Assembly: GCA_023898465.1 (NCBI GenBank)
Contig: CP060223.1
Span: 800,001-864,000 of the forward strand
DNA from: Candidatus Nomurabacteria bacterium
GTDB lineage: Bacteria > Patescibacteriota > Patescibacteriia > HK-STAS-PATE-3
Reading direction: 5' to 3'
Length of the DNA stretch: 64,000 nucleotides
Made by a program: the position numbers and the translations under genes. This document shows, one piece after another, positions 6,149 to 56,542 of this stretch. Numbering within the stretch: position 1 is the first letter of the stretch; each line of letters starts with the position of its first letter. The notes below the pieces were generated by a model. That model did no database searches. It was not told the origin of the DNA and worked only from the letters and a program-made list of their open reading frames with translations.

Positions 6149-6191
6149 ATACTAAGATATAAAAACTCGCCTGTCAACGTCTACTTTGACA
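6149..6191 (-). promoter_or_regulatory. suf operon promoter (TTGACA-17-TAGTAT on minus strand) overlapping a 20-nt palindrome TGTCAACGTCTACTTTGACA (candidate Rrf2 operator)
   Basis: Read on minus strand: TTGACA (6172-6177) spacer 17 TAGTAT (6149-6154), about 11 nt before the Rrf2 ATG. Perfect 6-bp inverted repeat TGTCAA-N8-TTGACA at 6172-6191. Confidence 0.45.
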
Positions 6192-6266
6192 AGCAGTGCC
6201 TGCAAAATCTATGCTACCCCCATACTCGTTCTTTCACACCCGTTCCCATGCAGGAAAGGAATACTC

Positions 6267-6911
6267 ATGGACGCTCTGATGACCAGCCTTGTGCAGGCAC
6301 CAATTCGCAAGAGTCGGCCGACCTGCGCTCGACGTCGATCTCACCGCTTCCAGCAACTACGTCATGGAACCCGACTTCGCCCTCTGGCAATCGCGCTCAA
6401 CCAACTCAACATCAGACCTTTCGTCAAGGCTGATGTGGAGAGATACAAGCGTGCACGTCGCGCTGAGTGCGAACCAACGCTTCGTCGAGATGCGCGCTTC
6501 AGGCGCTTCTTCCACATCAGCGCTAAGGTCGCCGCGATATTCGTGATAGTGTCTGCCATCTACTTGGCGGTACCTGGTCCGGCTCAATTCGCGGCGACTT
6601 GCTCGCTACTTGTTTCGTCGGTCTACCTGACTGCAAACCTCATCCTCGGCTGTCGCCTGCAGTTGCGAACTTACGTCCGCTGGCAGACCTGGAAAATCGA
6701 AACAGAGTGGTGCGCTTACCCAGGCGTACTTCCCGATCCTGTACAGCTACAGATCGCCAGGATCAAGGAGGTAGCACCGGGCGCTCGCTTCGAGGTCGAA
6801 GACCTCCGTTACAATACCGGACGGGTCTATGACCCACTCCTGTACGCGTGTCTGGATGAGGAACGCTTCTGCGTAGCAACTTGGCTAGGCAAGGAATGCC
6901 GAATCGCCTAA
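6267..6911 (+). CDS. hypothetical membrane protein (Arg-rich N-terminus, 2 predicted TM helices); first gene of GC-rich island 1
   Basis: 214 aa from the ATG at 6267, preceded by SD AGGAAAGGA. About 59% GC against a 48% backbone. Hairpin terminator follows. Confidence 0.45.
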   Translation: MDALMTSLVQAPIRKSRPTCARRRSHRFQQLRHGTRLRPLAIALNQLNIRPFVKADVERYKRARRAECEPTLRRDARFRRFFHISAKVAAIFVIVSAIYLAVPGPAQFAATCSLLVSSVYLTANLILGCRLQLRTYVRWQTWKIETEWCAYPGVLPDPVQLQIARIKEVAPGARFEVEDLRYNTGRVYDPLLYACLDEERFCVATWLGKECRIA

Positions 6912-6926
6912 GGCCACATTCGAGAC

Positions 6927-6952
6927 CAGCTTCTCTCTTGAAGCTGGTCTTT
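6927..6952 (+). terminator. rho-independent terminator (gaccagcttc-tctctt-gaagctggtc + T-rich)
   Basis: Perfect 10-bp inverted repeat followed by TTTCCTT. Confidence 0.6.
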
Positions 6953-6962
6953 CCTTATATGC

Positions 6963-7275
6963 TTGACAGTTTTTCTAGACCGTGCTAACTTATCCCGTTG
7001 TTCGTGACCGCATATGTAGTCCCGGACAACGTCAACCACTGGAAATCGGCGCATCATCGCGCCACGTCACAACGAATGGGAGGTATTCCCTCGATGCTGA
7101 CAAAACTCAAGCGTTGCCCGCGTAGGTATGCGAGCCTGGGTCGCCGGTCCCAGTAGCCCTCTCTCGCACGAGAGGAATCCAACTCGTCCTGCGCCGGGGC
7201 CTTCCACCGGCAATTACACCGTCGAAACGGACGAACCCCGGAGCCCGAAGACATCTGTCTGAGGGCTCCTTTTTC
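6963..7275 (+). ncRNA. candidate small non-coding RNA unit: promoter TTGACA-17-TAACTT, about 280 nt ORF-free transcript, terminator ggagccc…gggctcc-TTTTT
   Basis: TTGACA 6963-6968, TAACTT 6986-6991. No plus-strand ORF above 30 codons. Terminator stem 7240-7246/7263-7269 plus T5. Confidence 0.3.
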
Positions 7276-7277
7276 CA

Positions 7278-7306
7278 TTGACACAAAGCGTATCGTCTGC
7301 TATATT
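7278..7306 (+). promoter_or_regulatory. sigma70-like promoter TTGACA-17-TATATT for the small-paralogue operon
   Basis: TTGACA 7278-7283, TATATT 7301-7306. SD GGAGG at 7336-7340 precedes the ATG at 7345. Confidence 0.5.
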
Positions 7307-7344
7307 CCCCGGTCTCACGCACCTGCACAATCAACGGAGGATGA

Positions 7345-7614
7345 ATGCGGAACGAAGACGCTGATGCAATGCACTTCCACTGGGGGATCACGAACTGCGT
7401 TGTCATCGACGTAGAAGAAAGGCCTAGAGCAAGTGCGGTACGCACTTTTGCTCAGGACAACCAAGCTACTTGTTCAGAGGGAAATGAAGTCCTGGTGCGA
7501 TGCACCTGCACTGAAATTCGACCTCAGCTACTTAGTGTGAGGAGGCTCCAGTCCTTTCTCACCGAACATCGTTCTGGTCATCCAATAAACTCGCCCAAAG
7601 AGGAGGGGGAATGA
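7345..7614 (+). CDS. small Cys/His-motif protein, tandem paralogue 1 of 3 (no recognisable family)
   Basis: 89 aa. Shares NCVVI, (V/I)L(V/I)xCxC and FLxxHxxGH with the next two ORFs. Stop overlaps the next start (ATGA). Confidence 0.5.
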   Translation: MRNEDADAMHFHWGITNCVVIDVEERPRASAVRTFAQDNQATCSEGNEVLVRCTCTEIRPQLLSVRRLQSFLTEHRSGHPINSPKEEGE

Positions 7615-7889
7615 AAGCAGTCAACGCTGGTGAACACGGCAACGAGCACGTCCGGGTCTGCGTTGTCATCGAAGGAGATGAGAACCGAGATATTCTGGAA
7701 ATCTACGCTTTCGCTCGCGAGGTTCAGGCCATCGAGCCTGACGAGCCGCAAGACGAGGCTAGCGATGGAGAACGCGTCTTGATTTGTTGCGAATGTCCGG
7801 GCGGAGACAGACCTCGCTTCGCTGACCATGACCAACTGATCGCCTTTCTCCGCGATCACAACTCAGGCCACCACGCTTCGGTGGAATAG
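7611..7889 (+). CDS. small Cys/His-motif protein, tandem paralogue 2 of 3
   Basis: 92 aa. SD GGAGGGGG. Motifs VCVVIEG, YAFARE, VLICCEC, FLRDHNSGH. Confidence 0.5.
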   Translation: MKAVNAGEHGNEHVRVCVVIEGDENRDILEIYAFAREVQAIEPDEPQDEASDGERVLICCECPGGDRPRFADHDQLIAFLRDHNSGHHASVE

Positions 7890-7904
7890 CCGGAAGGAGA
7901 CTAC

Positions 7905-8177
7905 ATGCATACCGTAGCCGCTACGGCACCATCGAAGCAAGTCAAGAACTGCGTCGTAATCCAGCTAGGAGAGCATCCCTCTCTAGAGACGCTCCTTGCC
8001 TTCGCGGCAGAGCATGCGGCCGTCAGAGTTGACGAGCAACCCGACGAACTCAACGACGGTGATCAGGTCCTGGTCACCTGCAATTGTCGGGACGGCTCAG
8101 GGCAGCAAATGCTCCTCACCGTGCCGGAGATTGAGCAGTTTCTCGAAAGTCACGCCTTGGGGCATCCCTCGGGGTAA
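7905..8177 (+). CDS. small Cys/His-motif protein, tandem paralogue 3 of 3
   Basis: 90 aa. SD AAGGAGA. Motifs NCVVIQLGE, LAFAAE, VLVTCNC, FLESHALGH. Confidence 0.5.
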   Translation: MHTVAATAPSKQVKNCVVIQLGEHPSLETLLAFAAEHAAVRVDEQPDELNDGDQVLVTCNCRDGSGQQMLLTVPEIEQFLESHALGHPSG

Positions 8178-8195
8178 ACTATGCACCTTCACCTA

Positions 8196-8233
8196 GAACC
8201 AGCTGACTCCGGTCTCCTGGTTCTTTCTTTTTC
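8196..8233 (+). terminator. rho-independent terminator (gaaccag…ctggttc + TTTCTTTTTC)
   Basis: 7-bp stem, then T-run. Closes island 1. Confidence 0.55.
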
Positions 8234-8273
8234 TGTCACTCTGGACTTGTTCCGAAGTCTCCTAAACTCAAAA

Positions 8274-9110
8274 CTATTTCAATAACTTCGCCTGTTGCTG
8301 CAACTCCTGTATCCGCTTCCGTTCTTGAGTAGTGAAACCGTGCATATCCGTTAAGGTTAACAACTCCTGTATCGTAACCACTCCGATTCGGAAAAGCTTC
8401 GATTTCATACTCGAGTCTAAACTCATGAGAATGGTGATAGGATAGACTTTTGTCTGCTCAATAAGCTTTTGTAAACTTTGATCAGCCGGATGACCCCAGC
8501 TAAGAATGTGCACGTTTGCGCAACGGGCGTATTTCATTGCTTCGGTGGTACATTTCGTATTTGTAACTAGCCAGGCATGCTGGACATGCTTCTTAGGGGC
8601 CAGGCGCTGTTCATCTTCTTTGGCTTGGAAAGCTTTTCCAATGTCATCGAAGCGTGCCTTAATATAGAGCGCCACCTTTACATCAGTCTTCATGCCGCGT
8701 CGATTATGATACTTGCACTCAAAAAGATGCAGCTGACCATTCTTGCGGGCTAAAATATCAACCTCGTGTGAAACACAGAAGCCGCGAACATATTGATCAG
8801 TTTGCACGCTGTACCCTAAGGCACTCAACAAACGCGCGACGTATTGTTCAAAAGGAAACCCGGTCGGACCAAGATTCATTATCGCTCGTTTCAAACCATA
8901 ACGCATGGCCTGCTTGGTATTGAGCTGGGCTAGTCGACTTTTTGCATAGGAAAAAATCGCTTGCGTCGACTTATGGAGTTTTGGCTTTAAACTTATTTCC
9001 TCAGCCAAACCTCGGGCCACTGTACCCGGCACTCCAGAATTTTGTAAAGACTGAATAAACTTCTCTGGCTGAAAAATCTGGTATTCACCGGATGATTTAC
9101 GGATGCGCAT
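8274..9110 (-). CDS. ATP-cone domain fused to Mrr-like (PD-(D/E)xK) restriction endonuclease domain
   Basis: 278 aa. N-terminal ATP-cone-like MRIRKSSGEYQIFQPEKF. Central nuclease motif HEVDILARKNGQLHLFECKYH. TGcTACAAT extended -10 ends 6 nt before the ATG. Confidence 0.6.
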   Translation of the reverse strand: MRIRKSSGEYQIFQPEKFIQSLQNSGVPGTVARGLAEEISLKPKLHKSTQAIFSYAKSRLAQLNTKQAMRYGLKRAIMNLGPTGFPFEQYVARLLSALGYSVQTDQYVRGFCVSHEVDILARKNGQLHLFECKYHNRRGMKTDVKVALYIKARFDDIGKAFQAKEDEQRLAPKKHVQHAWLVTNTKCTTEAMKYARCANVHILSWGHPADQSLQKLIEQTKVYPITILMSLDSSMKSKLFRIGVVTIQELLTLTDMHGFTTQERKRIQELQQQAKLLK

Positions 9111-9225
9111 AGGTATATTGTAGCACGTACTTAGGGTATAGTCTTGACATTTCTATAAAAATCGCTAAGGTCAGACTGCTTTTGGAGCATTGACATCAAC
9201 CGCTAGAACAGAGGAGGAGGAGTAG

Positions 9226-9468
9226 ATGACGCTCGCAGCTACTGAACTTAGGCCTGGGATGACGGTGCGGAATCTGCGGAGCGGTCTCACCGCTACGGTC
9301 ACCGAACCGCTGAGGGTCACGGGCGATCCGCTGCACGTACACGTCAGGAGGACGATGGAGGGAGGCGAGAGCAACGGTAAGACCAAGTTGACCACCTGGA
9401 GTCTCGACAACGTCGAGATCGTGCCGGTGGCTCAGGAGCCTGTCGACAACGATCGGCAGGTCGGCTAG
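9226..9468 (+). CDS. hypothetical small protein (GC-rich islet)
   Basis: 80 aa. Strong SD GGAGGAGGAG. About 62% GC. Followed by a nested hairpin terminator. Confidence 0.4.
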   Translation: MTLAATELRPGMTVRNLRSGLTATVTEPLRVTGDPLHVHVRRTMEGGESNGKTKLTTWSLDNVEIVPVAQEPVDNDRQVG

Positions 9469-9477
9469 CCCTTCGCG

Positions 9478-9531
9478 CCCAATCCAAAAAATCCAGCTGA
9501 GCTGGACTAAGGATTGGGTGCTTTTTTTATT
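9478..9531. terminator. bidirectional nested-hairpin terminator (cccaatcc…ccagctgagctgg…ggattggg + T9)
   Basis: 8-bp outer stem with an inner palindrome. T-run on plus side, A-run on minus side. Sits between convergent genes. Confidence 0.55.
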
Positions 9532-10312
9532 TTGCTGGGGTCACTACCAACATGACCTTTTGCCCATGGTCAACATCCCCGCCATTCCAATCGTGAATGG
9601 CATTCATAAGCACACTCTCTTCATAGACGTAGTCAGCTCCGTTGCGCGTACCAGGATCATTGGTAATAAAATGCCCATCCTTTGTGTAGCCCTTCACTAC
9701 TAAGGCATGATAAATCGGACCTGGTGAAGTGAAGTTTGGATTACCTAACTGGCGACCAGCAGCTAATACAATAATTGGATGGCCTTGTGCAATCTCCTGC
9801 TTAATAGCAAGAGCAGTCACCGCATCGCCGGTACTCACCTCTACTTCATAACCCCATAGGTCGCGAATGAAGCGTGCCGTCTCTTCGCCGGTTGTATCCT
9901 GGTAAAAACCATAGTGCTGCTCCTCAAAATCTACAATCGCTAAAATGGAACGATCAGCGTCTTCTTTCGTAAGCGGCTCATCCTCCCAATAACGTTGTAC
10001 CATAAGCGCAGCAGTTTCTTCACAGGCTTCTTGGTATGGTAAATCCCAATTGGCAAAAGGCGCCTGAGATGAAAAAGGCACGTCTAAATTTATCTCGTCC
10101 GGCAAAGTAACGACTGTGTTTGTAATTGCCGTATTGGTAGTTGTGCTATTACTGTTTTCCACGCTCGTATTCACGACTGCATTTTTCGCAGTAGGCTCTG
10201 GTAACTCAGGTGTAGAGATCGAATCCCAAGTATCACGAATCCAGCCGCGCTGCCAATAGCCAAGCCCGAGTAAAAGCACTAACGCGATAATAATGATGAT
10301 TCCCTTTTTCAT
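9527..10312 (-). CDS. peptidase C39-like (YvpB-like) domain protein, N-terminal membrane anchor
   Basis: 261 aa. TM MKKGIIIIIALVLLLGLG. Conserved QEACEETAALMV Cys region and downstream His/Asp pattern of the Peptidase_C39_2 family. Confidence 0.5.
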   Translation of the reverse strand: MKKGIIIIIALVLLLGLGYWQRGWIRDTWDSISTPELPEPTAKNAVVNTSVENSNSTTTNTAITNTVVTLPDEINLDVPFSSQAPFANWDLPYQEACEETAALMVQRYWEDEPLTKEDADRSILAIVDFEEQHYGFYQDTTGEETARFIRDLWGYEVEVSTGDAVTALAIKQEIAQGHPIIVLAAGRQLGNPNFTSPGPIYHALVVKGYTKDGHFITNDPGTRNGADYVYEESVLMNAIHDWNGGDVDHGQKVMLVVTPAK

Positions 10313-10375
10313 AGACGTGCGAGTATAGCAAGACTATTGTAGCACGTCAATGCCCAATGTCTGCTATTAAGGAGA

Positions 10376-11326
10376 CTAGGCGAGCTGCTTACGGAAGAGT
10401 AGCGCCAGTAGTAAAATTCCTAATGCTCCTCCGCCCAGCCACCAAGCCAATGTAAAATCTTTTGACTGTTCTTCTTCTACATTTGTTTCTGTTGCTGGAT
10501 ATACATCGCTTGTCTGTATAGTATTTTCATCATCACTGCTTAATTCAGGCATATCTAAAGCCTGTCTTATTTCTTCCTTCTTCTCTTGGGATTCTTTTAA
10601 GTCTAGCGAAGTATTCTTTGGTCGCTCAAAAGTAAAACTTGGCCCTTCCACAGCTACAATCAATCGCTCGGCAATTCCAGACCCAGCTGTCGCCTTTTCT
10701 TTTCTTATACCAACCTGTCCAGTAACAGCATAATTTCCATAATCAGTATTAAAAGGTTTTACAACAATTTCATTATCATCCCATGAAAGAATAGTGGCGC
10801 AACCCTGATCAGTGCGATTGATGCTACAGGTACCGAAATAGACTATGCCTCCACTCTGAAGTGTACCGAATCCTTGACCTCGAATATGCACTTCATCATC
10901 GTACCAACCCGTATTCGGCTCTAGACTATCAATTCGTACATATCCCGTATCTTTAGTCGTGAAACTTATTTCATCTGACACAACGCCACTATTCACAAAC
11001 CGAACATAATACTTTTGAGAGGGCTGCAACACTCCCTCCAGAGAACTAATGAGATAATAAAATTTATTATCATCAGCTATAGTATAGGTTCCTCCATCTA
11101 TATTCTGCGTATATTGACCGGACTCAACGCCTAACTCAATCCCTAAATCAACCCAATCAGTTGTATCATCTGACTGTACAGAAAAAACCGCGCTTCTATC
11201 TGAAGTATAAACTACACTTGGATCTGATAATGAATGTGTTTCAGCCTGAGCCGAAGAAGCAAAAAACAGCGCTATAGCCAAGCTCACTATAGCGATCTCA
11301 CTGAAGAACATTATGTTCTTTTTCAT
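10376..11326 (-). CDS. cell-surface protein with signal peptide, IPT/TIG-like domain and C-terminal TM anchor
   Basis: Start taken at MKKNIMFF. Signal peptide …ASSAQA. C-terminal LAWWLGGGALGILLLALLFRKQ. Confidence 0.45.
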   Translation of the reverse strand: MKKNIMFFSEIAIVSLAIALFFASSAQAETHSLSDPSVVYTSDRSAVFSVQSDDTTDWVDLGIELGVESGQYTQNIDGGTYTIADDNKFYYLISSLEGVLQPSQKYYVRFVNSGVVSDEISFTTKDTGYVRIDSLEPNTGWYDDEVHIRGQGFGTLQSGGIVYFGTCSINRTDQGCATILSWDDNEIVVKPFNTDYGNYAVTGQVGIRKEKATAGSGIAERLIVAVEGPSFTFERPKNTSLDLKESQEKKEEIRQALDMPELSSDDENTIQTSDVYPATETNVEEEQSKDFTLAWWLGGGALGILLLALLFRKQLA

Positions 11327-11426
11327 TGTATCCTCCGTATATTTATCTGCCTCATAAGTGTAACACAAATAAAAGTCTAGCCTCGAAGCGAGCCTCCACT
11401 CTTTTATCGATGCTCCTGAATTCCTG

Positions 11427-12875
11427 TTACGAACGCGGCGTGTCGCCAACAATAATCACTGGTGTGCCCACTTCGGCAAACTCGTACATCCACTGTGCAG
11501 CATCAGTTGGTAGATTTGAACAACCATGACTCATAGGATGTCCAAAATTATTGTGCCAATATGCGCTGTGAATACCATAGTCGCCGTTGTAGTACATAAC
11601 CCATTCTACGTTTGGGAGATAGTAACCTGGCCCGCTCATAACCTGACGACGCACCTTGGTGTACACCTTATATTCTCCTGGAATAGTTGGTGTTGCCGGA
11701 CGACCGCTGGAAATTAGTGTGTAGTATTGCAATACACCATCCTGAAAAGCAAACATGGTCTGCTTATCTAAGTCAGTGTAAATAAGCTTACCCTCATTGC
11801 GAGGCGCACTTACCTCTAAATACTCTGTTGACTTTGCGATGGTATGAAAGGGAATGGTGATTTCGTTCTCACCCTGACCGATCCACTGTGCATCTAAGAA
11901 AGTAATGAGTCGATCAATATCTACCTCGCGACCATCCTTCCCCTCACTGATTGGCTTTGTCTCAGCCACTGACTCGTATCGTTTTTCTGACACAGGCTCC
12001 TGACGAAGTGTAGCGAGTCGCGTTGCAAAAAACTTCTTTGCTGTCTCTGAGAGAACAGCGAGGTGCCAACCATCCTCATCTTCACTAACTGTTAGCCAAG
12101 GTAATACATCGTCTTCTGTCATTTCAAATTCCTCGTCCTCGCTCACTAAGCGAAGTGGAGCACTGAGGAGATCGGCTGCCTGCTCAGCTAAGGGCTGCAG
12201 TATAGCAGTGTCCTGCATTGCTTCAGCAGCTACAAAGGCAACGGAAATATCTGTCTCATCTAATCGAATCGCCTGCTGTAAAAGTTGTGCCTTTAACAAA
12301 TCCTGGTCAAGCACATTACCTGTCTTACCACCACGGAATTGTAGATCTCCGCCATGGTGTACCAGAGTTGGTTGTAGCGGCGCCTGATCAAGCTGCTCAG
12401 CCAACCAGGATAGATAGGCATCGAGCTCAGGCTCATGAATCACAACGCTGGCAAGTACTTCATTGTCTGATCCAGCGTGCACTGGTGGCACAAACCATTT
12501 TCCTAACAAGCTTGTACGGCCAGTGTGAAAAGCTTGTGCTACTGTCTGCGTAATATCAACACTTAAACCTAAATCGCTAAAGCGAGGCGTCCAAGCTTCT
12601 TCACCATAGCGGATAGTAATAGGCTGCTGAGCGTAGTCACTTACGTATTGCTCAATTGCTGCCTCCGCCTGTGCGACTGCTAAACCGCCCACATCAACCG
12701 GGCCAATATGAATGCCCGGGTAAATTTTTTGTTGTAGGAGTTGCGCATAGCCAAAAGACAGTACCGCTAACACTGCGACCACGGAGAGCGGCGCGCTTAG
12801 CCATAGAAAAATGCGCGACTGGTGCCAGCGCGAAGTCTGCTCTCGAGATGGAGAATAGCGTACCCCCTTGTGCAT
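11427..12875 (-). CDS. L,D-transpeptidase (YkuD catalytic domain) with N-terminal TM and large extracellular region
   Basis: C-terminal catalytic motif GIHSAYWHNNFGHPMSHGCSNLP. The track ORF starts at a TTG at 12947, but a TTGACT-17-TATACT promoter lies at 12919-12947, so the likely start is the internal MHKG about 12875. Confidence 0.75.
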   Translation of the reverse strand: MHKGVRYSPSREQTSRWHQSRIFLWLSAPLSVVAVLAVLSFGYAQLLQQKIYPGIHIGPVDVGGLAVAQAEAAIEQYVSDYAQQPITIRYGEEAWTPRFSDLGLSVDITQTVAQAFHTGRTSLLGKWFVPPVHAGSDNEVLASVVIHEPELDAYLSWLAEQLDQAPLQPTLVHHGGDLQFRGGKTGNVLDQDLLKAQLLQQAIRLDETDISVAFVAAEAMQDTAILQPLAEQAADLLSAPLRLVSEDEEFEMTEDDVLPWLTVSEDEDGWHLAVLSETAKKFFATRLATLRQEPVSEKRYESVAETKPISEGKDGREVDIDRLITFLDAQWIGQGENEITIPFHTIAKSTEYLEVSAPRNEGKLIYTDLDKQTMFAFQDGVLQYYTLISSGRPATPTIPGEYKVYTKVRRQVMSGPGYYLPNVEWVMYYNGDYGIHSAYWHNNFGHPMSHGCSNLPTDAAQWMYEFAEVGTPVIIVGDTPRS

Positions 12876-12918
12876 TTGTAATGTGAAATTTGTGTTGTTT
12901 TTTGACTTTTCATATATG

Positions 12919-12947
12919 AGTATAGCAAAAAAATCGTCGAAAGTCAA
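12919..12947 (-). promoter_or_regulatory. sigma70-like promoter TTGACT-17-TATACT (minus strand) for the L,D-transpeptidase gene
   Basis: Forward agtcaa 12942-12947 and agtata 12919-12924. Spacer 17 nt. Confidence 0.45.
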
Positions 12948-12956
12948 TATTATCTA

Positions 12957-13090
12957 CCCGCCCTCTCACCCGTCATTGCGAATCCCGATGCATATCGGGA
13001 TGAAGCAATCTCGTTACTCAAACTCACGGGATTGCTTCGTCGTTCGCTGGACTCTCTCCTCGCAATGACGGGAGGAAGCGAGAGGGCGGT
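12957..13090. other. 133-nt complex palindromic element (23-bp interrupted outer stem enclosing two hairpins) between truB and the L,D-transpeptidase promoter
   Basis: ccgccctctc(a)cccgtcattgcga pairs with tcgcaatgacggga(ggaagc)gagagggcgg. Inner hairpins atcccgat-gcat-atcgggat and gaagcaatc…gattgcttc. Confidence 0.4.
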
Positions 13091-13136
13091 TAATAAAAAT
13101 CACGACAAGGCAGAGACGCCTTATCTGTGTGTCTAC

Positions 13137-13820: not shown

Positions 13821-13891
13821 CATACCCATAAGTGTACAGGGGGCACGTAACAAGTGACAACAAGGCATATTTGCTACTTTCCTGTTAGCCC

Positions 13892-17803: not shown

Positions 17804-17812
17804 CTCACCTCC

Positions 17813-49039: not shown

Positions 49040-49624
49040 CTACCCATACTTCGCCAGAAGTAATCGGGCTGCCTCGCGAATATCTTCCACCCGGTAAAAG
49101 ATAAACTTACCTTGCGTGCTAATGCCCCATTCTAGTATTAATCCCTTCTTCGGCATACGGCACGCCAAGAGAATACGTTGTTTTTCAGCAGGGCTAAGAA
49201 ATTTTTTTAACCCAATGCTTTGGGTGAGTTTACCTTTTTGATAGGTGTAACTAGCTGTCACTTTCCCATAGCGCATGAGGTTCACAATTGGGCCACGAGT
49301 TGCTTCAATAACTACGCGATCACGCTCCAGTAAAATTGTGCCGCCTTTTTTCCATTTCCATGAAGGGTAGACAACAAACAAGGCGCGATGAGGGTGCTCG
49401 CGCTGCAGACGATCAACAGTGGCGGCAACTTTACTTGGTGCCACCCAATTCGCATACAAGTTTTTCCACGGACCACCGCGTACTTCCACAGTGCGAATTG
49501 TCCAGCCACGATATGCATCAATGTTTTGAATACCACGCAGCTCTTTTGAAGAACGCACAAATTGCCACTCAGGATGAGGTAGACCAGCTGCGTCTATTTT
49601 CTTTAGCCCTTGTAGGATGGTCAT
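49040..49624 (-). CDS. mini ATP-grasp protein resembling the N-terminal nucleotide-binding domain of PEP synthase/PPDK (PPDK_N-like fragment)
   Basis: 194 aa. KIDAAGLPHPEWQFV resembles the GLPVPPGFV loop. FVVYPSWKWKKGGTILLERDRVVIEATRG resembles the Mg/ATP-binding strand. 4-nt overlap with the upstream paralogue. Confidence 0.4.
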   Translation of the reverse strand: MTILQGLKKIDAAGLPHPEWQFVRSSKELRGIQNIDAYRGWTIRTVEVRGGPWKNLYANWVAPSKVAATVDRLQREHPHRALFVVYPSWKWKKGGTILLERDRVVIEATRGPIVNLMRYGKVTASYTYQKGKLTQSIGLKKFLSPAEKQRILLACRMPKKGLILEWGISTQGKFIFYRVEDIREAARLLLAKYG

Positions 49625-51231
49625 AACTTACGGACAATTCCTTTCGTTGCATCGACCTCCACTTGGTCACCGTCTTTCAATACTTTGGTAGCAATCTTTG
49701 TGCCAATGACGCAGGGGATTTTTAGCTCCCGAGAAACAATGGCTGCATGCGAAGTTACGCCACCCTGCTCGGTCACAATCGCTGCAGCTTTTTTCATCGC
49801 TGCTACAATGTCCGGGTCAGTAGCAATCGAAACAAGAATATCACCGCGTTGCATTTTTGCCATATCCTTTGGACGAATAATAATCTTAACTCGTCCAGTC
49901 GCTTTTCCTACACAACCTGTCTGACCATGAAGCTCTTCACTTGATTCGTGCTTCATAGACTGCAACTGCTTCTTCATTCTCTTTGCTGCAGCGCCTACGA
50001 GAATAGTATCCCTATTCTTTTCACTGATGTAGACGCATTCTTTCACTCGTTGTTTCAGCATCGATCGAGATAAATGACCACGAGTTAAGGCGGCATGAAC
50101 TTCTTTAGGCAACATGAAGCGCATTTCTTTGAGTGAAATGTGGAGACGCCGGGCAATTTCTTTTTGCAAAAATTCCATTTTATAAAGTGCATATATCTGC
50201 GCAAAGCGACGATAAATTTTTGTTACCATGAAATCACCAAAGGCTAAGAAAAGCGTTTTCCATTTTCCGCTAATTCGGTATTGTCGCAGGTAGCGTTCAC
50301 GCAAACTATTTGCAGTCTGTAATTTCTTCTTTTCCTCTTTGAGCAACGCGGCGATGTCAGACTTCTGACCAATAAGTTTCACCAGCTCTTTTAGGTAGTA
50401 CGTAAAATGCGCAGTTTCACCAATCCACATCCTCGGTACATAGAAGTAGCTCGCATAATGCTTTTGTATACGTTTCAGTATTTCCGGACTTATCGCATCT
50501 ATCAATTGGTCAGCTCGCTGCTCTAGACCATGCTCAAATTCTTCGGTATGCGTTTGCCAGCCATAGGGTCCTGCTTCTTTATTTAAGAAAGTAGAATATA
50601 TATCAGCGAATAATTTTTTCTGTTTGGCATTTTTTTGTATGGCAAAAGCAATGTGCAAAAAATCTTCACGTTCTTTCTGAATCAGTGAAATGCTTCGTGG
50701 ATGAGTGAGCGCGACAAACACCTCATTTACTTTTGCTTCAGGTACTCCTTGCGTTGCTAAATACTGCTTCATCCGATCAGTGAGGTTGTTGTGAAACATA
50801 TCTGCAGCAACCGGTATCCAACACCACTGATAGTACTCCGTGTGCAAACGATCATGCTCAGTATATAATTGCCACAACTTAGTATTACTCTGCTTCTCTA
50901 AGCCCGTCTCGGGTAGCTTTTCAGTAAAGCGTCGTAAGCGATCTGCTTGATGCAGTATCTCTTTATTTACTTGTGTGGCAAAGGCAGGCTCTTGAATAAA
51001 ACGATTAACAATGTGATCGCCCTCGGTCTTCGCATCATCGTGATCATAATAAAACCAGAGATGGTAGCCCTGGTAATAAGTAGCCACTCGTTGATACGCT
51101 CGTCCATTCGGTTTTGCAAACTCATTAGTAAAACATGACAACCAGATTTGCGAAAAAGCAAAATCAATATCTGGAATATCCTCAGCTAGCATCCAATTGA
51201 TACTTTGCTTTTGTATTTTAGGAGAGCTCAT
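49621..51231 (-). CDS. PEP-utilising-enzyme mobile (phosphohistidine swivel) domain protein, paralogue 1
   Basis: 536 aa. C-terminus GGVTSHAAIVSRELKIPCVIGTKIATKVLKDGDQVEVDATKGIV. N-terminal 430 aa of unknown fold. Confidence 0.6.
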   Translation of the reverse strand: MSSPKIQKQSINWMLAEDIPDIDFAFSQIWLSCFTNEFAKPNGRAYQRVATYYQGYHLWFYYDHDDAKTEGDHIVNRFIQEPAFATQVNKEILHQADRLRRFTEKLPETGLEKQSNTKLWQLYTEHDRLHTEYYQWCWIPVAADMFHNNLTDRMKQYLATQGVPEAKVNEVFVALTHPRSISLIQKEREDFLHIAFAIQKNAKQKKLFADIYSTFLNKEAGPYGWQTHTEEFEHGLEQRADQLIDAISPEILKRIQKHYASYFYVPRMWIGETAHFTYYLKELVKLIGQKSDIAALLKEEKKKLQTANSLRERYLRQYRISGKWKTLFLAFGDFMVTKIYRRFAQIYALYKMEFLQKEIARRLHISLKEMRFMLPKEVHAALTRGHLSRSMLKQRVKECVYISEKNRDTILVGAAAKRMKKQLQSMKHESSEELHGQTGCVGKATGRVKIIIRPKDMAKMQRGDILVSIATDPDIVAAMKKAAAIVTEQGGVTSHAAIVSRELKIPCVIGTKIATKVLKDGDQVEVDATKGIVRKL

Positions 51232-52331
51232 GCTCCTAATCTTCGCACAATTCCCTGGTTCGCGTCTACTTCTACGAGATCGCCGCTTTGTAGACTACTG
51301 GTAGCAAATTTTGTACCAATAACGCAAGGAACTTTCAACTCCCGGGCTACGATTGAAGCGTGACTAGTCACTCCACCTTCATCAGTAACAATCGCCCCAG
51401 CTCGCTTCATGGCTGGTATATAACGCGGATCAGTCATTGAGGTTACTAAAATTTCGCCCTGGCGTAGTTTTGTAGCATCGGCGATTTTTTGAATTAAACG
51501 CACTTTGCCTTTTACCTTGCCAGGGAAAGCCACGTTGCCCTTGAGTAGCCCCTTCGTTGCTTTCGGTAATGACAAACCAAAGCGTTTCAATGCGCTAGCT
51601 GAATTTGAGTACGCATATACGTTTTTGCCTTGCTTCAACACAAAACGTTTTCTTCGATTACGTAGCCTTTTTATCGACGGGAGTTTTCCAGAATTTAAGT
51701 ACTCAGTAAATTCACTAAGTAGCAAATACTCCAAAACCTCTATTGCGAGCTTTTCAGACTTTTCAATTTGACGCAGTAATCTTTTCTGCAAATCAATACC
51801 TACCCGGTAAAAGTCAGCTCCTTGTGCACGGCCTTGTAAGAAGAGTTTCAGGACTGCGGGAGTAACTTGATCTGAAACAAACTCTGGCACTTCGATACAA
51901 GCAACTAAGAACGGTAGAGCATCGTGAAAATATTCATGCAATTGAAGTATCGCCGCTTTCGGATCAGCGTGCTCCTGTTGTACAAATATATTATACGAGC
52001 GAAGTAAGGCATCGTGCTGCTTTTTTTGCTGCTTCAGTTTTGCCAGCGTACCATGTGTTTTTACCCAACCTTGCGCTGCGCCTTGTAAATCTTCATCCGC
52101 CATAAAGTGCCATAAAACACCATTCTCAACATACACATGGATTGGGCGAATCTGATGCGAAAAAAAATCTCGTGAAGCTTTATTAAGAAATGCTTCAATA
52201 ACTACTGAGGTTGCTAATACAGTATAATCTCTTTGATGTGGGGTATAGTGAAGCTTCATAGCTTTTACTCTAGCACATAATTCAGCACTCTTATCAAGAA
52301 AGAGGCGGCAGTTCATATTGACTGCCGCCAT
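51228..52331 (-). CDS. PEP-utilising-enzyme mobile domain protein, paralogue 2 (shorter N-terminal region)
   Basis: 367 aa. C-terminus GGVTSHASIVARELKVPCVIGTKFATSSLQSGDLVEVDANQGIV. Confidence 0.6.
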   Translation of the reverse strand: MAAVNMNCRLFLDKSAELCARVKAMKLHYTPHQRDYTVLATSVVIEAFLNKASRDFFSHQIRPIHVYVENGVLWHFMADEDLQGAAQGWVKTHGTLAKLKQQKKQHDALLRSYNIFVQQEHADPKAAILQLHEYFHDALPFLVACIEVPEFVSDQVTPAVLKLFLQGRAQGADFYRVGIDLQKRLLRQIEKSEKLAIEVLEYLLLSEFTEYLNSGKLPSIKRLRNRRKRFVLKQGKNVYAYSNSASALKRFGLSLPKATKGLLKGNVAFPGKVKGKVRLIQKIADATKLRQGEILVTSMTDPRYIPAMKRAGAIVTDEGGVTSHASIVARELKVPCVIGTKFATSSLQSGDLVEVDANQGIVRRLGA

Positions 52332-52661
52332 GTAGACGCGAGCCCCACAGAGCTCTTTCCCTAGGTCTGTCTACCTGACCGAGTTCGCCCAAAGACGATC
52401 TCCTGCTGTTTACCTCTTTCGAGGTGGCTTGGACTTGCTCCGCATGAGGGGACAGCAGTTATTCCTCGCAACGGGGTCCCACACCCGAGACTTCCGGTTG
52501 GCCGTATCCGTTGCAGCTTCTTGAAGAACAATGCGGAGTCACCGCGAAGTCTCGATTAGGACAATGCCACCCGCTTCTTCATGAGAGAAACCTCCCTTCC
52601 ATCAAAAAGCCATGGCATTAAAAATAATACCACGCTGTACTTATACTGGCGAGCAATTTTT
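52332..52661. ncRNA. 330-nt ORF-free, GC-rich, highly structured spacer (candidate structured RNA of unknown class)
   Basis: Several nested helices: ctgctgt…acagcag, gcaacgg…ccgttgc, cgagacttc…gaagtctcg (pseudoknot-compatible). No ORF on either strand. Confidence 0.25.
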
Positions 52662-54227
52662 TTACAACTTTCTGACTAAACCCTTGGTAGCATCCACTTC
52701 CACCTTGTCACCATCCTTCAAAATCTTATTCGCTACCTTCGTCCCTACTACGCAGGGCACACCAAGCTCGCGCGAGACAATAGCCGCATGTGAAGTCAAA
52801 CCTCCGGCGTTGGTCACGATTGCAGCGGCTAGCTTCATTGCTGGTACCAGACTGGGATAGGTTGTCTCAGAAACCAAAATATCACCTTTTTTCATTTTTG
52901 GAATATCCGCCGGCACCTCAATAATTTTTACCGTACCAGAAGCAGCTCCCGGAGAAGCGCATGAACCCGTTAGCTCACTTGCCTCGGTGGTAATCAAGGT
53001 ATCCTCTTTAGGAATTTCTTTCATGAACTTCTTTGCCTTCTGACCAGTCAAAACGATATATTGCTTCTTATCGCAATACGCCACTGTCTCCCGAGTTCGC
53101 GCCAGCAGCTCTTTCATAGTCGGGATCGACTTCCCTTGGAGCAAATCCTCAATCTCCCATGAGTTCAGGGCTCGCACAGTTTCCAAAGTCAGCTTATGTC
53201 GCTGAGCAATTTCACGGAAGAATGGTTCATAGCAGTACATACCATGATAGAGTGCGCCTTTTCGAAATTCCTTTATGTACACTATTTCTTGTCCCATGCG
53301 GATGAGCTGCCATATATTGCCTTGGAGGTGTAGAGATTTTTTTAATCGAGCCTGTTTTTGCTTCAGGAGCCTTTCCTTCACCTTCATATCAGCCAAAATC
53401 TGTTTGGGTGACTCACCGCTCTTTAGTAATTCCCTCCAACGAGTGAGGAAGTAGCGAAAGGAATAAGCTGGCCCCTTATACGCGTAGGGAATCCATCGCC
53501 ATTTCTCATAGTGCGCTCGCAGTAAAGCAGCTACTTTTTGATCCACTTCTGCTAATCCCTTTTCGGCCTTTGCGATGGGCGAACGAAGTAGGTGATTTCG
53601 CACCTTAGCAGAGCGCCGAAGCTGATCAGTAATCTGCAAAAACTCTCTTTCCTCCTGCGCAGCAAAACTCAAGCGGGGTGGGCTAGTAAGTAAACTAAAT
53701 ATTTCCGGCAAGGTTGCTGAGTCACCATAACAATCAATTTGTTTCTTGAGCGCTGCTTCTATACCTGTTGACACGCGGGCCTGATCAGCATCAGCCAACC
53801 AAGTGACCGCCGCACCGACCCCGTGGGAAAGTACATGCCAGCGTAAGACCTTACGAAACTCTCGAAGTAACTGTACATCAGTCATCTCACGGATTGGCAG
53901 TGCATATAAATTCCGAGAAGCCTGCATGAAGTTGATTGACCAATCCTCAACCTGCTTCAAGGTCTTTAATCCCCATTGTGGCTTTTGCAACATCTTCTGC
54001 GATAAGCCATCGGCCTGGGTATCAAATTCAGATCGCCGAAACCACATCTGAGAAAAGTCACCTTTGTAGTAGGTAAAGTACTCACTCAGGTGTCCGCCGA
54101 GTCCCATTCGCTTCCATTCCAAAAGAAAAAAGCGAATCGGCGTCCCCATCATAAAAATAGTATTTTCAGTTATTTCAGCTGGGACAAACCACTTGTCACT
54201 TTGCTTTTTTATGGCCTTTTTACCCAT
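52662..54227 (-). CDS. PEP-utilising-enzyme mobile domain protein, paralogue 3
   Basis: 521 aa. C-terminus GGLTSHAAIVSRELGVPCVVGTKVANKILKDGDKVEVDATKGLV. N-terminal region collinear with paralogue 1. Confidence 0.6.
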   Translation of the reverse strand: MGKKAIKKQSDKWFVPAEITENTIFMMGTPIRFFLLEWKRMGLGGHLSEYFTYYKGDFSQMWFRRSEFDTQADGLSQKMLQKPQWGLKTLKQVEDWSINFMQASRNLYALPIREMTDVQLLREFRKVLRWHVLSHGVGAAVTWLADADQARVSTGIEAALKKQIDCYGDSATLPEIFSLLTSPPRLSFAAQEEREFLQITDQLRRSAKVRNHLLRSPIAKAEKGLAEVDQKVAALLRAHYEKWRWIPYAYKGPAYSFRYFLTRWRELLKSGESPKQILADMKVKERLLKQKQARLKKSLHLQGNIWQLIRMGQEIVYIKEFRKGALYHGMYCYEPFFREIAQRHKLTLETVRALNSWEIEDLLQGKSIPTMKELLARTRETVAYCDKKQYIVLTGQKAKKFMKEIPKEDTLITTEASELTGSCASPGAASGTVKIIEVPADIPKMKKGDILVSETTYPSLVPAMKLAAAIVTNAGGLTSHAAIVSRELGVPCVVGTKVANKILKDGDKVEVDATKGLVRKL

Positions 54228-54640
54228 ATATATGCATTATACCATTGACAAAAAGCTCTACCTATGCTATCCTCTCGCGTAGTTTGCAGAGCAGTTGTTC
54301 TTTCGCAAACTCAAAAGAGTCGAACGCTTGGGCCCGTCAGGGTTAAGCGTGAGACTCAGAGGGACATCCTTTCGAAAGCCGAAGTGGACTGGTGAATACC
54401 AGAACACGTAGGCAGGAGAAAGAGATGGCCCGAGAAGATGAGGCGTTTGACTCGTTTACCGAATTGAGGACGCTTTCCGCCCACGGGCGGATAAGTGAAC
54501 GAGAAGCCAAGTAGCGTAACCGGCATCAGTAGTGTTTTTGTAGAATTACCGGACAACGTACTTGCGACCCAAAAGGAATATGGGTCACCAAACGCCTCCC
54601 AACAGATGGGAGTTCTTTTCATCTAAGGGAGGAAAAAGAG

Positions 54641-55321
54641 ATGGCGAATATCGTCGTCTTTGATCCGATCCGTGAACATTTCAGTGACTACATGATTGGG
54701 CTAGCCAGTCATCAGGTTATCGTGAGAAATACGGTCGAGGACGTCAATGGGACGCTCCGATCCTTCTCACCCGACCTGATCCTGGTAGCTGAATCAGAGC
54801 AGTCAGCTGCCGTGATCGCGGCCGTGCAACGGAGTGATCGACGCATACAAGCGCCAACACTCCTTATCCCTGCATCACTCGAAGGACCTGATGACCAGCG
54901 ATGGCAACAGAGCCGTCAGCTCGGCGTCGCGGGATGGATCCCTCGACCTCAGCAACGAGGCTTCAAGTCACTCCTGGCTGAAGACTGGCGACGTAATATC
55001 GTCAGTCTCATGCTCTGGCTATGCAATCAGTTGCACCGAGAGCAACCACTGAGTGTGTGGTTCCGAGAACATCAAAGCGTCGTGGCTATGGTGGGCCAAG
55101 AAACCTATCATCGCCTCATCACCGGCTCATCCATCCAGTATGCACCCGAAGAATATCGTCGACTCCAGAGGACACTGGCAATCTGGGGAGTACGCTATCC
55201 GCTGGATCGCTATCTCCAGGCTGTCGCTCTTGCAGGACGCAAGGCAGAGGCACAGAGACTCTCAGATCGCGTGCTTACAAACATGGCGAGGCGCATGCTT
55301 TCGTCTGAAGCACAAGGCTGA
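54641..55321 (+). CDS. pseudo-receiver (REC-like) domain protein, paralogue A (GC-rich island)
   Basis: SD AAGGGAGG. IVVFDP…PDLILVAESEQ…TLLIPAS…GWIPRP follows CheY topology, but the phospho-acceptor position is Ala and the conserved Lys is Arg. Confidence 0.4.
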   Translation: MANIVVFDPIREHFSDYMIGLASHQVIVRNTVEDVNGTLRSFSPDLILVAESEQSAAVIAAVQRSDRRIQAPTLLIPASLEGPDDQRWQQSRQLGVAGWIPRPQQRGFKSLLAEDWRRNIVSLMLWLCNQLHREQPLSVWFREHQSVVAMVGQETYHRLITGSSIQYAPEEYRRLQRTLAIWGVRYPLDRYLQAVALAGRKAEAQRLSDRVLTNMARRMLSSEAQG

Positions 55322-55352
55322 CTTCTACCATTCCTGCAAGGGAGGTTCTGAA

Positions 55353-56072
55353 ATGTCGCACATCGTGATCCTCGACCAAGACCCGATCCGACAGCTGTGG
55401 TATCAATCCGCGCTGCCGGGTCACGTCATCTCCTTCGTGGAGACCGCCCTCGGAGCGATTCGATTGGTGCAGCAGGTTCCCACCGCTGCCATCATTGCCG
55501 AGTACTTCGATGGGTCTGGCACTCGGCTCCTGGAGGAGCTCGATCGCCTGGTCCGGAACTGTCGCTTCGCCGCCCCGCCAGTCTACCTGACCGGCACCAT
55601 CACTATGCTGGACAACACGATGGAGAAGGCCGTGCAGCTCGCGCAGAATCGTGGAGCTCAGGACTTCATCCCGCATCCGATCAGTCGTGAGCGCTTCCGG
55701 GAACGGCTGGCCGACGTGCTCGAACAAGACAGAGGAGGTCGTGTCGTCGGACACATCACCTTTTGTGAGGCACCGCCGGTCACGACCTCGGAACTCGTCG
55801 ACCTGACCTATGAAATCCCGGAGGCGCGCGACCTGATCAACGCAACGATCGGGATGCGCACCTTCTCCAGCATGCTGAATCGAGCTCTGGCTGTGGAAGG
55901 ACACGGACCCGCCCAGATCGTCTGTGCGGAAATCGGTGTCTGGGCTACGGAAGGAATTCCCACGCTCACCGCTGCTGAGTTCTCGGCTGAGCTCGGCGAT
56001 AAGGAGAGAACGGCCTGTCAGGATATTCTCTTCGAGATCGCCCACTCCCTGCTCTTTGACCGCGCTGCCTAG
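55353..56072 (+). CDS. pseudo-receiver (REC-like) domain protein, paralogue B
   Basis: SD AAGGGAGG. IVILDQDP…PTAAIIAEYFDGSGTRLLEEL…VYLTGT…GAQDFIPHPISRERFRERLADVL follows REC topology. Acceptor position is Ala. Terminator 56083-56118. Confidence 0.4.
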   Translation: MSHIVILDQDPIRQLWYQSALPGHVISFVETALGAIRLVQQVPTAAIIAEYFDGSGTRLLEELDRLVRNCRFAAPPVYLTGTITMLDNTMEKAVQLAQNRGAQDFIPHPISRERFRERLADVLEQDRGGRVVGHITFCEAPPVTTSELVDLTYEIPEARDLINATIGMRTFSSMLNRALAVEGHGPAQIVCAEIGVWATEGIPTLTAAEFSAELGDKERTACQDILFEIAHSLLFDRAA

Positions 56073-56183
56073 CGCAACCCGAGGCGTCTACTTTCCCCAA
56101 GTAGGCGCCTTTCTTCTTGACTTTTTTATCTAAGTGGATAAACATGCCCACGGACACTGTTCGACAAACCATAGGAGGCGCAC

Positions 56184-56432
56184 ATGCCGGAAATCGCACT
56201 GGAACAGAAGTTCATCGACATCGTAGCTGAGCAACTTGGCGTCGACAAGAGACGGGTCACCCCTAACCAGAGCGCCAAGGGCGACCTCGGTGCGGACTCG
56301 CTCGATCTCGTCGAGCTCATCATGGCCCTGGAAGAGGGTTACGAAATCAAGATCGACGACGGAGAGCCGGACAACCTGGAAAACCTGGGTGAACTCCAGG
56401 CGCTCATTCTGTCCAAGGTCGCCGCCAAGTAG
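56184..56432 (+). CDS. acyl carrier protein (phosphopantetheine attachment site DSL)
   Basis: 82 aa. DLGADSLDLVELIMALEE motif. Own SD AGGAGG. Terminator 56464-56498. Confidence 0.8.
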   Translation: MPEIALEQKFIDIVAEQLGVDKRRVTPNQSAKGDLGADSLDLVELIMALEEGYEIKIDDGEPDNLENLGELQALILSKVAAK

Positions 56433-56542
56433 TCCAAGACAACCCGTTCCTTCCCTAGCAACCAAAAAGCAGTTCCTGCACGGAGCTGCTTTTTCTCTTG
56501 ACGATAATGTAAAAATTAGTTAGAGTCCTAACGTTTTACCGG

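Follow-up and report, generated by a model that had tools for sequence, protein, structure and literature searches.

GC-rich, Shine–Dalgarno-led orphan genes between the core operons of a Patescibacteria genome

Two gene classes in the window

The stretch of DNA analysed here, hereafter the window, comprises 64 kb of a Patescibacteria (candidate phyla radiation, CPR) genome (Candidatus Nomurabacteria bacterium, contig CP060223.1 of 1,082,586 bp, locus tags H6760_*, positions 800,001–864,000; coordinates below count from the first nucleotide of the window). Short GC-rich orphan genes, arranged in small islands, lie in it between operons of conserved genes, including suf, uvrA, 16S rRNA, trmD, smc and polysaccharide genes. 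The closest relatives of its UvrA (13948–16839) are found in Patescibacteria metagenome-assembled genomes (MAGs), at 84% and 82% identity, followed by Candidatus Kerfeldbacteria at about 74%. A preliminary description made from the sequence had listed at least ten GC-rich islands with Shine–Dalgarno (SD) sites in an SD-poor backbone and had attributed them primarily to a GC-richer, SD-using donor, naming as the alternative a distinct gene class with its own mode of translation initiation. All ten islands were recovered here, both in 300-nt composition profiles, which contain a GC-rich block at every one of them, and in a curated table of 64 genes whose starts were cross-checked against public gene calls and Pfam flags.

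The 21 island genes (8,754 bp in total, in at least ten inter-operon slots) have a mean GC content of 0.563 (range 0.466–0.621), against 0.468 (0.405–0.540) for the 43 backbone genes (46,845 bp), in a window of 48.3% GC overall. GC at first, second and third codon positions (GC1, GC2 and GC3) is 0.624, 0.438 and 0.627 in island genes and 0.575, 0.387 and 0.443 in backbone genes (Mann–Whitney p = 1e-9 for GC3). The islands had been put at 58–62% GC, which proved slightly too high: the blocks lie at about 55–59%, with single genes reaching 62%. An unsupervised two-component Gaussian mixture on GC and GC3 returned nearly the same split, with a modest gain in the Bayesian information criterion. 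The GC-normalised dinucleotide signature also differs between the classes (delta* 146 versus a null of 31 ± 8.5). Relative abundances in island and backbone are 0.52 and 0.78 for TA, 1.33 and 0.99 for GA/TC, and 0.98 and 1.28 for GC, and the difference is also present at codon boundaries (z = 7.8). The compositional contrast described earlier is confirmed. The 5′ spacers of island genes are AT-rich (GC 0.41–0.45), like native spacers, and the GC richness is therefore limited to coding sequence and terminator stems.

Codon and amino-acid usage differ as well. The share of C-ending codons among pyrimidine-ending codons (NNC/NNY) averages 0.40 in the backbone, 0.55 in the S16 and KH genes, 0.64 in island genes and 0.82 in the gene for acyl carrier protein (ACP), an island gene; C-ending codons are somewhat preferred in S16, KH, UvrA and SMC, and G-ending codons are likewise enriched in island genes. 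Island proteins contain more Arg, Pro and Cys (Cys 1.8% versus 0.6%) and less Lys, Ile, Phe and Tyr. Pfam domains were found in nearly all backbone proteins but above threshold in just 1 of the 21 island proteins, the ACP. The classes also differ in strand, with 18 island genes on the plus and 3 on the minus strand, compared with 6 and 37 for the backbone (p = 3e-8). Plus-strand GC skew is steadily negative over all 64 kb and indicates the minus strand as the leading one; beyond the left edge of the window, about 8 kb from position 1, are parA and parB (L096 19267–20903). Across the 64 genes, GC, GC3, SD, strand, terminators and Pfam status co-segregate. The flanks outside the window contribute 16 further genes: only one is GC-rich, and it combines an SD with the lack of a Pfam domain; none of the 15 at backbone GC has an SD.

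So fine-grained a mosaic might be expected of a chimeric contig interleaving reads of two organisms, the artefact that the preliminary description proposed to check at the island junctions. Exact-protein look-ups, however, located the same DNA in independent contigs from SRR12358675, SRR12358676, SRR23493594 and SRR14234116 and in two ENA assemblies, 99.9–100% identical to the window over 1–18792, 20008–32664 and 36540–56611. These contigs span the junctions of islands 1–5 and 7–9, and a further contig covers the junction of island 10; the junctions of island 6 fall in 32665–36539, outside all independent contigs. With matches from at least four runs or studies across nearly all junctions, and with the same mosaic in diverged relatives, chimeric assembly is excluded and the probability of any assembly or binning artefact is negligible. 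The SRR12358675 contig (L085) parts from the window at a tRNA-Glu gene (window 56590–56611 against L085 20040–20489): it is identical up to the 3′ half of the tRNA and then has three differing positions followed by unrelated sequence (a DUF378 gene). Either the assembly graph has joined in another tRNA locus of similar sequence, or the junction at the tRNA varies between strains.

Expression signals of island and backbone genes

The 16S rRNA gene (18559–20042, minus strand) carries an intact canonical anti-SD, its 3′ end being GGATCACCTCCTTTCT (also given as ...GATCACCTCCTTTCT). We scored an SD as a duplex with ACCUCCUUU of −7 kcal/mol or stronger at positions −20 to −3. By this measure 22 genes have an SD, 16 of the 21 island genes as opposed to 6 of the 43 backbone genes (Fisher p = 1.6e-6), and the island count rises to 19 of 21 once two genes are given alternative starts (20474, 27137) and the last, truncated gene its true one. 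Of composition-matched control windows inside the same genes, only 5.9% (island) and 3.7% (backbone) pass the threshold, so the excess is not explained by GC alone. These counts agree with the earlier statement that nearly every island open reading frame (ORF) has a canonical SD. The companion statement, that the backbone genes then checked lack one, extends to 37 of 43; the six that depart from it (11326, 31489, 39227, 40671, 48976 and 60113) encode a TIG-domain protein, a Por-tail protein, a GT2, a flippase, a Y1 transposase and a small membrane protein, all accessory or surface functions. The TIG-domain gene (10376–11326, minus) has a GC content of 40.5% and a canonical GGAGG SD and is absent from the syntenic regions of two related loci, L001 and L002. 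SD use therefore follows accessory status, not GC alone.

Backbone genes without an SD have a different signal. A TAnnnT −10 box ends 6–11 nt before the ATG in about 13–15 of about 20 SD-less operon-first backbone genes, compared with 15% expected by chance, in line with what had been noticed beforehand. This geometry was seen in the genes for Rrf2, an Mrr-like protein, C39 peptidase, GDPD, TrmD, S16 and SMC, and further in the PEP-utilizer genes, an ABC gene and Fur; among island genes only 7345 has a comparable box, a weak CACAAT at 13 nt. A −10 box 6–11 nt from the ATG would place the 5′ end of the mRNA on or beside the start codon, and operon-first core genes thus appear to be leaderless. 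Of 19 internal backbone genes, 17 overlap the preceding stop codon or start no more than 5 nt from it, and 1 has an SD; overlapping island genes still keep their own SD. From this arrangement, translation of the downstream core genes appears to be coupled, via stop and start codons that overlap or abut.

Individual operons illustrate both features. In the Rrf2–Fer4–sufCBD–Rieske–sufSU operon (762–6177, minus), TTGACA-17-TAGTAT lies 11 nt from the ATG of the first gene, and all seven downstream genes overlap the preceding stop or lie within 4 nt of it, none with an SD. The C39 peptidase gene has TTGACG-17-TATACT (10312–10350, minus), with the −10 box ending 9 nt before the ATG. A PEP-utilizer-domain gene has an extended −10 box of sequence TGGTATAAT 8 nt before its ATG (54225–54247, minus), conserved in the related locus L092. 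The public call for a Wzy-family gene starts at 41687 (plus); TTGACA-17-TATGCT (41663–41691) lies 10 nt before the ATG at 41702, which makes a leaderless start at 41702 likelier than one at 41687 and the gene an example of the wrong starts that standard gene finders give to leaderless genes. In L001 and L002, too, core genes are SD-less, and the promoter and leader of uvrA are conserved there; the SD-less core is a clade trait.

Island genes also differ in how their transcription units begin and end. Promoter-like sites with leaders of 30–85 nt precede 6267, 7345, 45168 and 46059, and a 360-nt leader precedes 54641. A strong hairpin with a T-run terminates 14 of 16 island units, as the preliminary description had it for island ORFs, but only 7 of 23 backbone units (p = 2e-5), and several of the backbone terminators are the reverse face of bidirectional island hairpins. 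The 3′ hairpins share no sequence and no repeat family covers them, and we rejected integron cassettes and repetitive extragenic palindromic (REP) elements as their identity.

Orphan status, persistence and turnover of island genes

Large protein-database searches covered four island families: hyp211, a set of tandem paralogues and the ACP against 5.8 billion proteins, and hyp257 against 1.84 billion representatives. No relatives outside the clade emerged of the kind that a GC-richer donor had led one to expect. The search with hyp211 returned itself and two 65%-identical relatives, and that with the tandem paralogues self matches only. The ACP found two clade relatives (73% and 62%), the next best matches being generic ACPs at 58% or less, and hyp257 found three clusters, including one 33%-identical relative and one repeat protein. 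Island proteins had no match in PHROGs, three that were tested had no relatives in IMG/VR, and neither 50,697 phage genomes nor 72,556 plasmids yielded a match in a tblastn search with 19 concatenated island proteins; a phage or plasmid origin was rejected on these grounds, as were anti-phage defence genes, for which PADLOC gave no match in the islands. Hallmarks of mobility are few. The window contains no integrase, a Y1 transposase and 82-nt repeats occur only in island 8 and a tRNA-Glu lies only beside island 9; the remaining islands are without transposase, tRNA or flanking repeats.

Islands 8 and 9 can be followed into related genomes, whose loci and contigs we label L001, L002, L090–L093 and so on. 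L090 and L092 belong to a population in SRR17818317, L091 comes from SRR32105342 and L093 from JGI 3300014656. These comparisons were made by curation; an automated ORF and SD caller run on 13 related loci was dropped because it was too noisy even on the window. Island 8, on the plus strand, begins with hyp131, a membrane orphan (44514–44909; SD GGAGG, terminator 44915–44946). Next comes hyp211 (45168–45803, in a unit spanning 45050–45884), with GC 0.616, the SD GAGGAGG, a promoter-like TTGACA-17-TAGAAT (45050–45078), a 5′ untranslated region (5′UTR) of about 85 nt and a terminator at 45854–45884. Then follow hyp110, hyp57 and hyp162 (46059–47028, terminator 47042–47070) and a further membrane orphan, hyp68 (in a unit of 48174–48423; SD AAGGAGG, terminator 48396–48423). 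hyp211, labelled 'histidine phosphatase' in the preliminary description, has an RHG motif and a sub-threshold Pfam match to His_Phos_1; the 'pseudo-receivers' of that description had no Pfam support, and its ACP was upheld.

In L090, the neighbouring GT4 is 93% identical at the amino-acid level (GC 0.465), hyp131 90% (GC 0.518) and hyp211 65% (GC 0.619), with the SD of hyp211 conserved; an orthologue of hyp318 follows hyp211, and the hyp110/57/162 block is absent. In L091, with a backbone GC of about 0.51, GT4 is 80% identical with synonymous sites saturated, hyp131 is 46% identical and hyp211 65% (GC 0.585, GC3 0.657). Divergence from L090 is a mosaic. The synonymous rate dS is 0.16, 0.41 and 0.80 for neighbouring genes, and nucleotide identity is 86–96% over GT4 and hyp131, falls to 65–78% exactly over hyp211 and returns to 90% in the downstream repeat. 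hyp211 looks, by sequence, like a divergent allele brought in by recombination. The 82-nt repeat, which resembles a miniature inverted-repeat transposable element (MITE) or REP element and contains the palindrome GCCAAGGCGTCTCGGCCTTGGC, brackets the hyp211 cassette, with copies at 44944–45025 and 45883–45964 just past the terminators of hyp131 and hyp211. A third, partly duplicated copy (48592–48708) lies in frame inside the ORF of the Y1 (IS200/RAYT-type) transposase (48428–48976). L090 appears to be without the first copy, its hyp131–hyp211 spacer being 84 nt shorter.

Island 9 (plus strand) contains hyp226 (54641–55321) and hyp239 (55353–56072), in a unit of 54245–56111 with its predicted promoter at 54245–54273 and its terminator at 56081–56111, and the ACP gene (56184–56432; GC3 0.771, SD GGAGG, Pfam match above threshold). 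In L092, where the PEP-utilizer protein is 94% identical, the island leader is present, hyp226 is absent, and both hyp239 (83%, GC3 0.746) and the ACP (73%, GC3 0.738) retain an SD; L093 has an SD-led, GC-rich ACP gene (GC3 0.70) beside PEP-utilizer paralogues at GC 0.42–0.48. A single-sequence AlphaFold model of hyp239 was uninformative, with a predicted local distance difference test score (pLDDT) of 34. Three paralogous genes (49621–54227, minus; 28–40% mutual identity) have the PEP-utilizers (mobile phosphohistidine) domain as their sole Pfam annotation, and such genes adjoin the GC-rich ACP gene in L092 and L093 too. Within the island-9 leader of about 360 nt are a conserved motif, some 100 nt long, and, immediately ahead of the SD, a terminator-like hairpin (54596–54612). 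The window has one copy of the motif and L092 two (718–816 and 1043–1145), and seven base pairs change on both sides among the three copies. A weak match to the c-di-GMP-II riboswitch at 54430–54534 is sub-threshold (23.7 bits versus a gathering score of 53.5), and the leader is a candidate for a new riboswitch or attenuator. An Rfam match to weev_FSE at 56083–56109 (minus; 40.1 bits versus a gathering score of 40) is the hyp239 terminator hairpin and, almost certainly, spurious.

Four genes in two islands (hyp131, hyp211, hyp239 and the ACP gene) thus keep the same position in relatives. No amelioration gradient is seen: GC richness is the same in island genes common to relatives and in unique ones. 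A fixed GC offset over the backbone was rejected, as island GC3 does not track backbone GC3 in the relatives. The ratio of nonsynonymous to synonymous rates (dN/dS) is 0.16–0.41 for island genes and 0.06 for the ACP against L093 (a comparison saturated at synonymous sites), compared with 0.08–0.13 for neighbouring core genes, and the island genes are therefore real genes under relaxed purifying selection.

Other slots turn over. The closest species representative, L001, has a backbone of about 54% GC and lacks islands 1 and 2; its slot between the Rrf2 and C39 genes holds an ECF sigma factor and two paralogous orphans (GC 0.60–0.62), one with an AAGGAG SD and both followed by a hairpin. GC-rich ORFs without Pfam domains lie near uvrA in L006, L007, L013, L003 and L004.

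The remaining islands are smaller. Island 1 opens with hyp214 (6267–6911, plus), an orphan of GC 0.572 without a Pfam domain, with a weak AGGA SD and a promoter-like TTGACA-18-TATGCT at 6186–6215. It continues with three tandem orphan paralogues (7345–7614, 7611–7889 and 7905–8177, plus), each with a GGAGG or AGGAG SD, behind a promoter-like TTGACA-17-TATATT at 7278–7306. These proteins are about 34% identical and have conserved Cys/His residues; an AF2 model of the family (pLDDT 71) matched no fold in the PDB. Island 2 is the orphan hyp80 (9226–9468, plus; GC 0.621, GC3 0.778, SD GAGGAGGAGGAG), which has a bidirectional terminator at 9490–9508 in common with the converging C39 peptidase gene. 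Island 3 (17594–18190, minus) encodes two small membrane orphans with GGAGG SDs, hyp125 (17813–18190) and hyp69 (17594–17803), and ends in a 19-bp terminator at 17545–17589. No 23S gene follows the 16S gene, so the rRNA genes are unlinked; the same-strand orphans of island 3 lie directly downstream of it, in the usual place of the spacer and 23S gene (17594–20042, minus).

Island 4 is hyp252 (20453–21211, plus; GC 0.572), an orphan with the SD GAGGGGGAG before an alternative ATG at 20474 and a terminator hairpin in common with a VTT-domain gene. Islands 5–7, also on the plus strand, are single orphans: hyp120 (27137–27511; GC 0.567, with AAGGAG before a TTG start at 27137 and a terminator), the Cys-rich hyp80b (35371–35613; GC 0.584, SD GAGGAG) and hyp257 (40812–41585, in a unit ending at 41620; GC 0.565, SD AAGGAG, 13-bp terminator at 41591–41620). 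Island 10 (63548–64000, minus; GC 0.553) is the C-terminal part of a 718-residue protein without a Pfam domain, whose true start, with the SD CAAGGAGG, lies outside the window.

A proposed clade-restricted pool of gene cassettes

We consider it about an even bet (probability roughly 0.5) that two gene classes co-reside in this genome and that the island genes are clade-restricted, moron-like flexible cassettes with their own expression mode and a maintained composition. The conserved core would then consist of long leading-strand operons of about 47% GC that make essentially no use of SDs, their first genes being leaderless by virtue of a σ70-type −10 box and their downstream genes coupled. 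Cassettes would sit between core operons and would mostly lie on the other strand. Each would bring its own promoter in an AT-rich, native-like spacer, a 5′UTR of 30–360 nt with an SD that pairs with the native anti-SD, up to three short ORFs and, at the end, a strong intrinsic terminator that in bidirectional form often also serves the converging core operon. Slots would persist while their content turns over between close relatives, and recombination would exchange alleles among related lineages. For the traceable genes, orthologues have the same GC-rich, SD-led state despite saturated dS and regardless of backbone GC; it therefore looks maintained rather than the fading imprint of a recent transfer from a host or phage. 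What maintains it could be gene flow within a GC-richer clade pool, recombination-linked GC-biased conversion, codon selection or a combination of these. The contrast is present in the related genomes examined and so is not simply a mark of recent foreign DNA. The alternative offered in the preliminary description, a distinct gene class with its own translation-initiation mode, fits these data.

That description's primary reading, repeated and relatively recent horizontal gene transfer (HGT) from GC-richer, SD-using donors outside the lineage (a host, phage, plasmid or mobile element), captures part of the picture. Slots do turn over and hyp211 looks like a recombined allele; several island genes are patchy among relatives, their composition is atypical with a very different dinucleotide signature, SD motifs are otherwise rare in the analysed genes, and there are a Y1 transposase and MITE-like repeats in island 8 and a tRNA-Glu adjoining island 9. 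We nevertheless think it unlikely. The families searched have no homologues beyond close relatives, the nearest non-clade ACPs are at most 58% identical, and PHROGs, IMG/VR, phage genomes, plasmids and PADLOC yielded nothing. Integrases are absent and most islands lack flanking repeats. The promoter spacers are AT-rich and native-like, syntenic orthologues stay GC-rich past synonymous saturation with no amelioration gradient between old and young island genes, and the organism's own 16S rRNA carries the canonical anti-SD. If the genes are instead native, their GC richness might be a by-product of high expression, with SDs, terminators and C- or G-ending optimal codons forming one syndrome. The climb in NNC/NNY from backbone through S16 and KH to island genes and the ACP would suit this idea, as would the canonical strong SDs and terminators and the restriction of GC richness to coding sequence and terminators. 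Against it, GC1, GC2 and amino-acid composition are shifted too (Arg, Pro and Cys up; Lys, Ile and Phe down), G-ending codons are enriched as well, dN/dS is higher and dS mostly higher in island than in core genes, the reverse of what is usual for highly expressed genes, and orphans appear and vanish between close relatives; the idea is accordingly quite unlikely.

GC-biased gene conversion acting alone, with inter-operon slots as recombination hot spots and no import of genes, finds support in the mosaic divergence with its sharp identity changes at the borders of island genes, in the repeats flanking hyp211 and in GC3 as the most elevated codon position. We judge it decidedly improbable: there is no GC enrichment in the 5′ spacers of these slots, a shift of about +18 points in GC3 is very large, island GC3 (0.66–0.77) does not follow backbone GC3 across relatives, and slot content differs between relatives, so new genes do enter. 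Birth of the genes de novo from transcribed spacers near divergent core promoters, with GC-rich sequence favoured because it contains fewer stop codons, has very little probability in our assessment. The island genes are indeed short, adjoin divergent promoters and belong, where searched, to families without homologues. But the spacers are AT-rich (0.41–0.45), a poor source for sequence of 56–62% GC, and one island gene encodes a bona fide ACP. The full sets of signals, paralogues at about 34% identity and orthologues down to 46–65% mean, moreover, that the island genes are not young.

Several points weigh against the reading as a maintained, clade-restricted cassette pool. Persistence covers four genes in two islands and islands 1–7 are untraced in relatives, so some islands may be recent arrivals. 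A strongly different dinucleotide signature is a classical mark of foreign DNA. The island signature is similar to the backbones of the GC-richer relatives L001 and L013, as well as to relatives' island analogues, and genes may therefore have been imported from such lineages. The leaderless starts are predicted from promoter geometry, and the analysis covered the 64 kb plus about 18 kb of a genome of about 1.08 Mb.

The proposed cassettes resemble several known systems in part. Morons, reportedly described by Hendrix, Juhala and colleagues in 2000, are said to be autonomous gene units inserted between conserved genes of lambdoid prophages. Like the islands, they comprise few small genes with a σ70-type promoter and a factor-independent terminator between backbone genes, differ in composition from their neighbours and vary in presence among relatives; the promoter-like sites and terminators listed above suggest that the island units, too, bring their own signals. 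Unlike morons, the islands lie among core chromosomal genes rather than in a prophage, no phage genes or homologues were found for them, and the contrast persists over long divergence for the traceable island genes. Genomic islands and islets have in common with them the atypical GC and signature, the accessory or orphan content, the patchiness, and the one tRNA and one transposase nearby. Unlike classical genomic islands, however, the units here measure 0.25–2.5 kb, are GC-rich rather than AT-rich, have no integrases and mostly no flanking repeats, have no donor that we could find, and include several genes that are syntenic and compositionally stable in diverged relatives. Integron cassettes and clusters of attC sites lacking integrases (CALINs) also consist of small, mostly orphan ORFs in a common orientation with a hairpin after each. 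Here the hairpins are unique GC stems with T-runs rather than an attC family, the units have their own promoter-like sites and are dispersed, and no intI-like Pfam match was found in the window.

Genomes that mix leaderless and SD-led genes are known, for example in Actinobacteria and Deinococcus, and correspond to 'group C' of GeneMarkS-2. As in those genomes, operon-first genes here have a near −10 box and no SD, others have a canonical SD and the anti-SD looks functional; unlike in those genomes, the split follows gene class, with SDs mostly reserved for GC-rich orphans and a small number of surface or accessory genes. About half of Parcubacteria lack the anti-SD motif (PMC9297842), which makes an SD-independent core plausible in the group, whereas the present genome retains its anti-SD. 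Bacterial orphan genes (ORFans) are short, fast-evolving, under weak purifying selection and often rare in their lineage (Vakirlis & Kupczok 2024, PMC11293555), and the island genes are likewise short, fast-evolving, under relaxed purifying selection and, where searched, without homologues beyond close relatives. In that large survey, the GC of orphans follows that of conserved genes almost one-to-one (rho 0.96), and virus-like orphans have less GC (PMC11293555). The island orphans lie about 10 GC points (18 at GC3) above conserved genes, and such persistently GC-rich orphans are thus unusual.

More tentatively, and at well under even odds, the two classes may correspond to two channels of initiation, in which the core is leaderless or coupled and has no need of the anti-SD, the anti-SD is retained mainly for autonomous, SD-led orphans that turn over rapidly and whose GC-rich composition is actively maintained, and global switching between the two may be possible. 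If so, the flexible proteome would be switchable globally, for example through the balance between 70S and 30S initiation, and the base composition of the orphans, as a class, would have stayed decoupled from the mutational equilibrium of the genome through long spans of evolution. In the literature that we searched, the combination of two channels with maintained GC was not described for bacteria, nor was a partitioning of leaderless and SD-led genes in CPR bacteria.

The finding challenges the routine equation of atypical GC with recent HGT, since in several diverged relatives the orphans keep a GC content some 10 points higher than that of the backbone. It also bears on the annotation of CPR MAGs, where gene finders with a single model of the ribosome-binding site miscall starts, and where compositional binning or contamination filters could wrongly discard flexible genes. 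If the pattern is genome-wide, it would give a concrete and testable picture of translation initiation in an ultra-small CPR bacterium, with the SD reserved for accessory orphans, and would help to explain the loss of the anti-SD in some Parcubacteria (PMC9297842).

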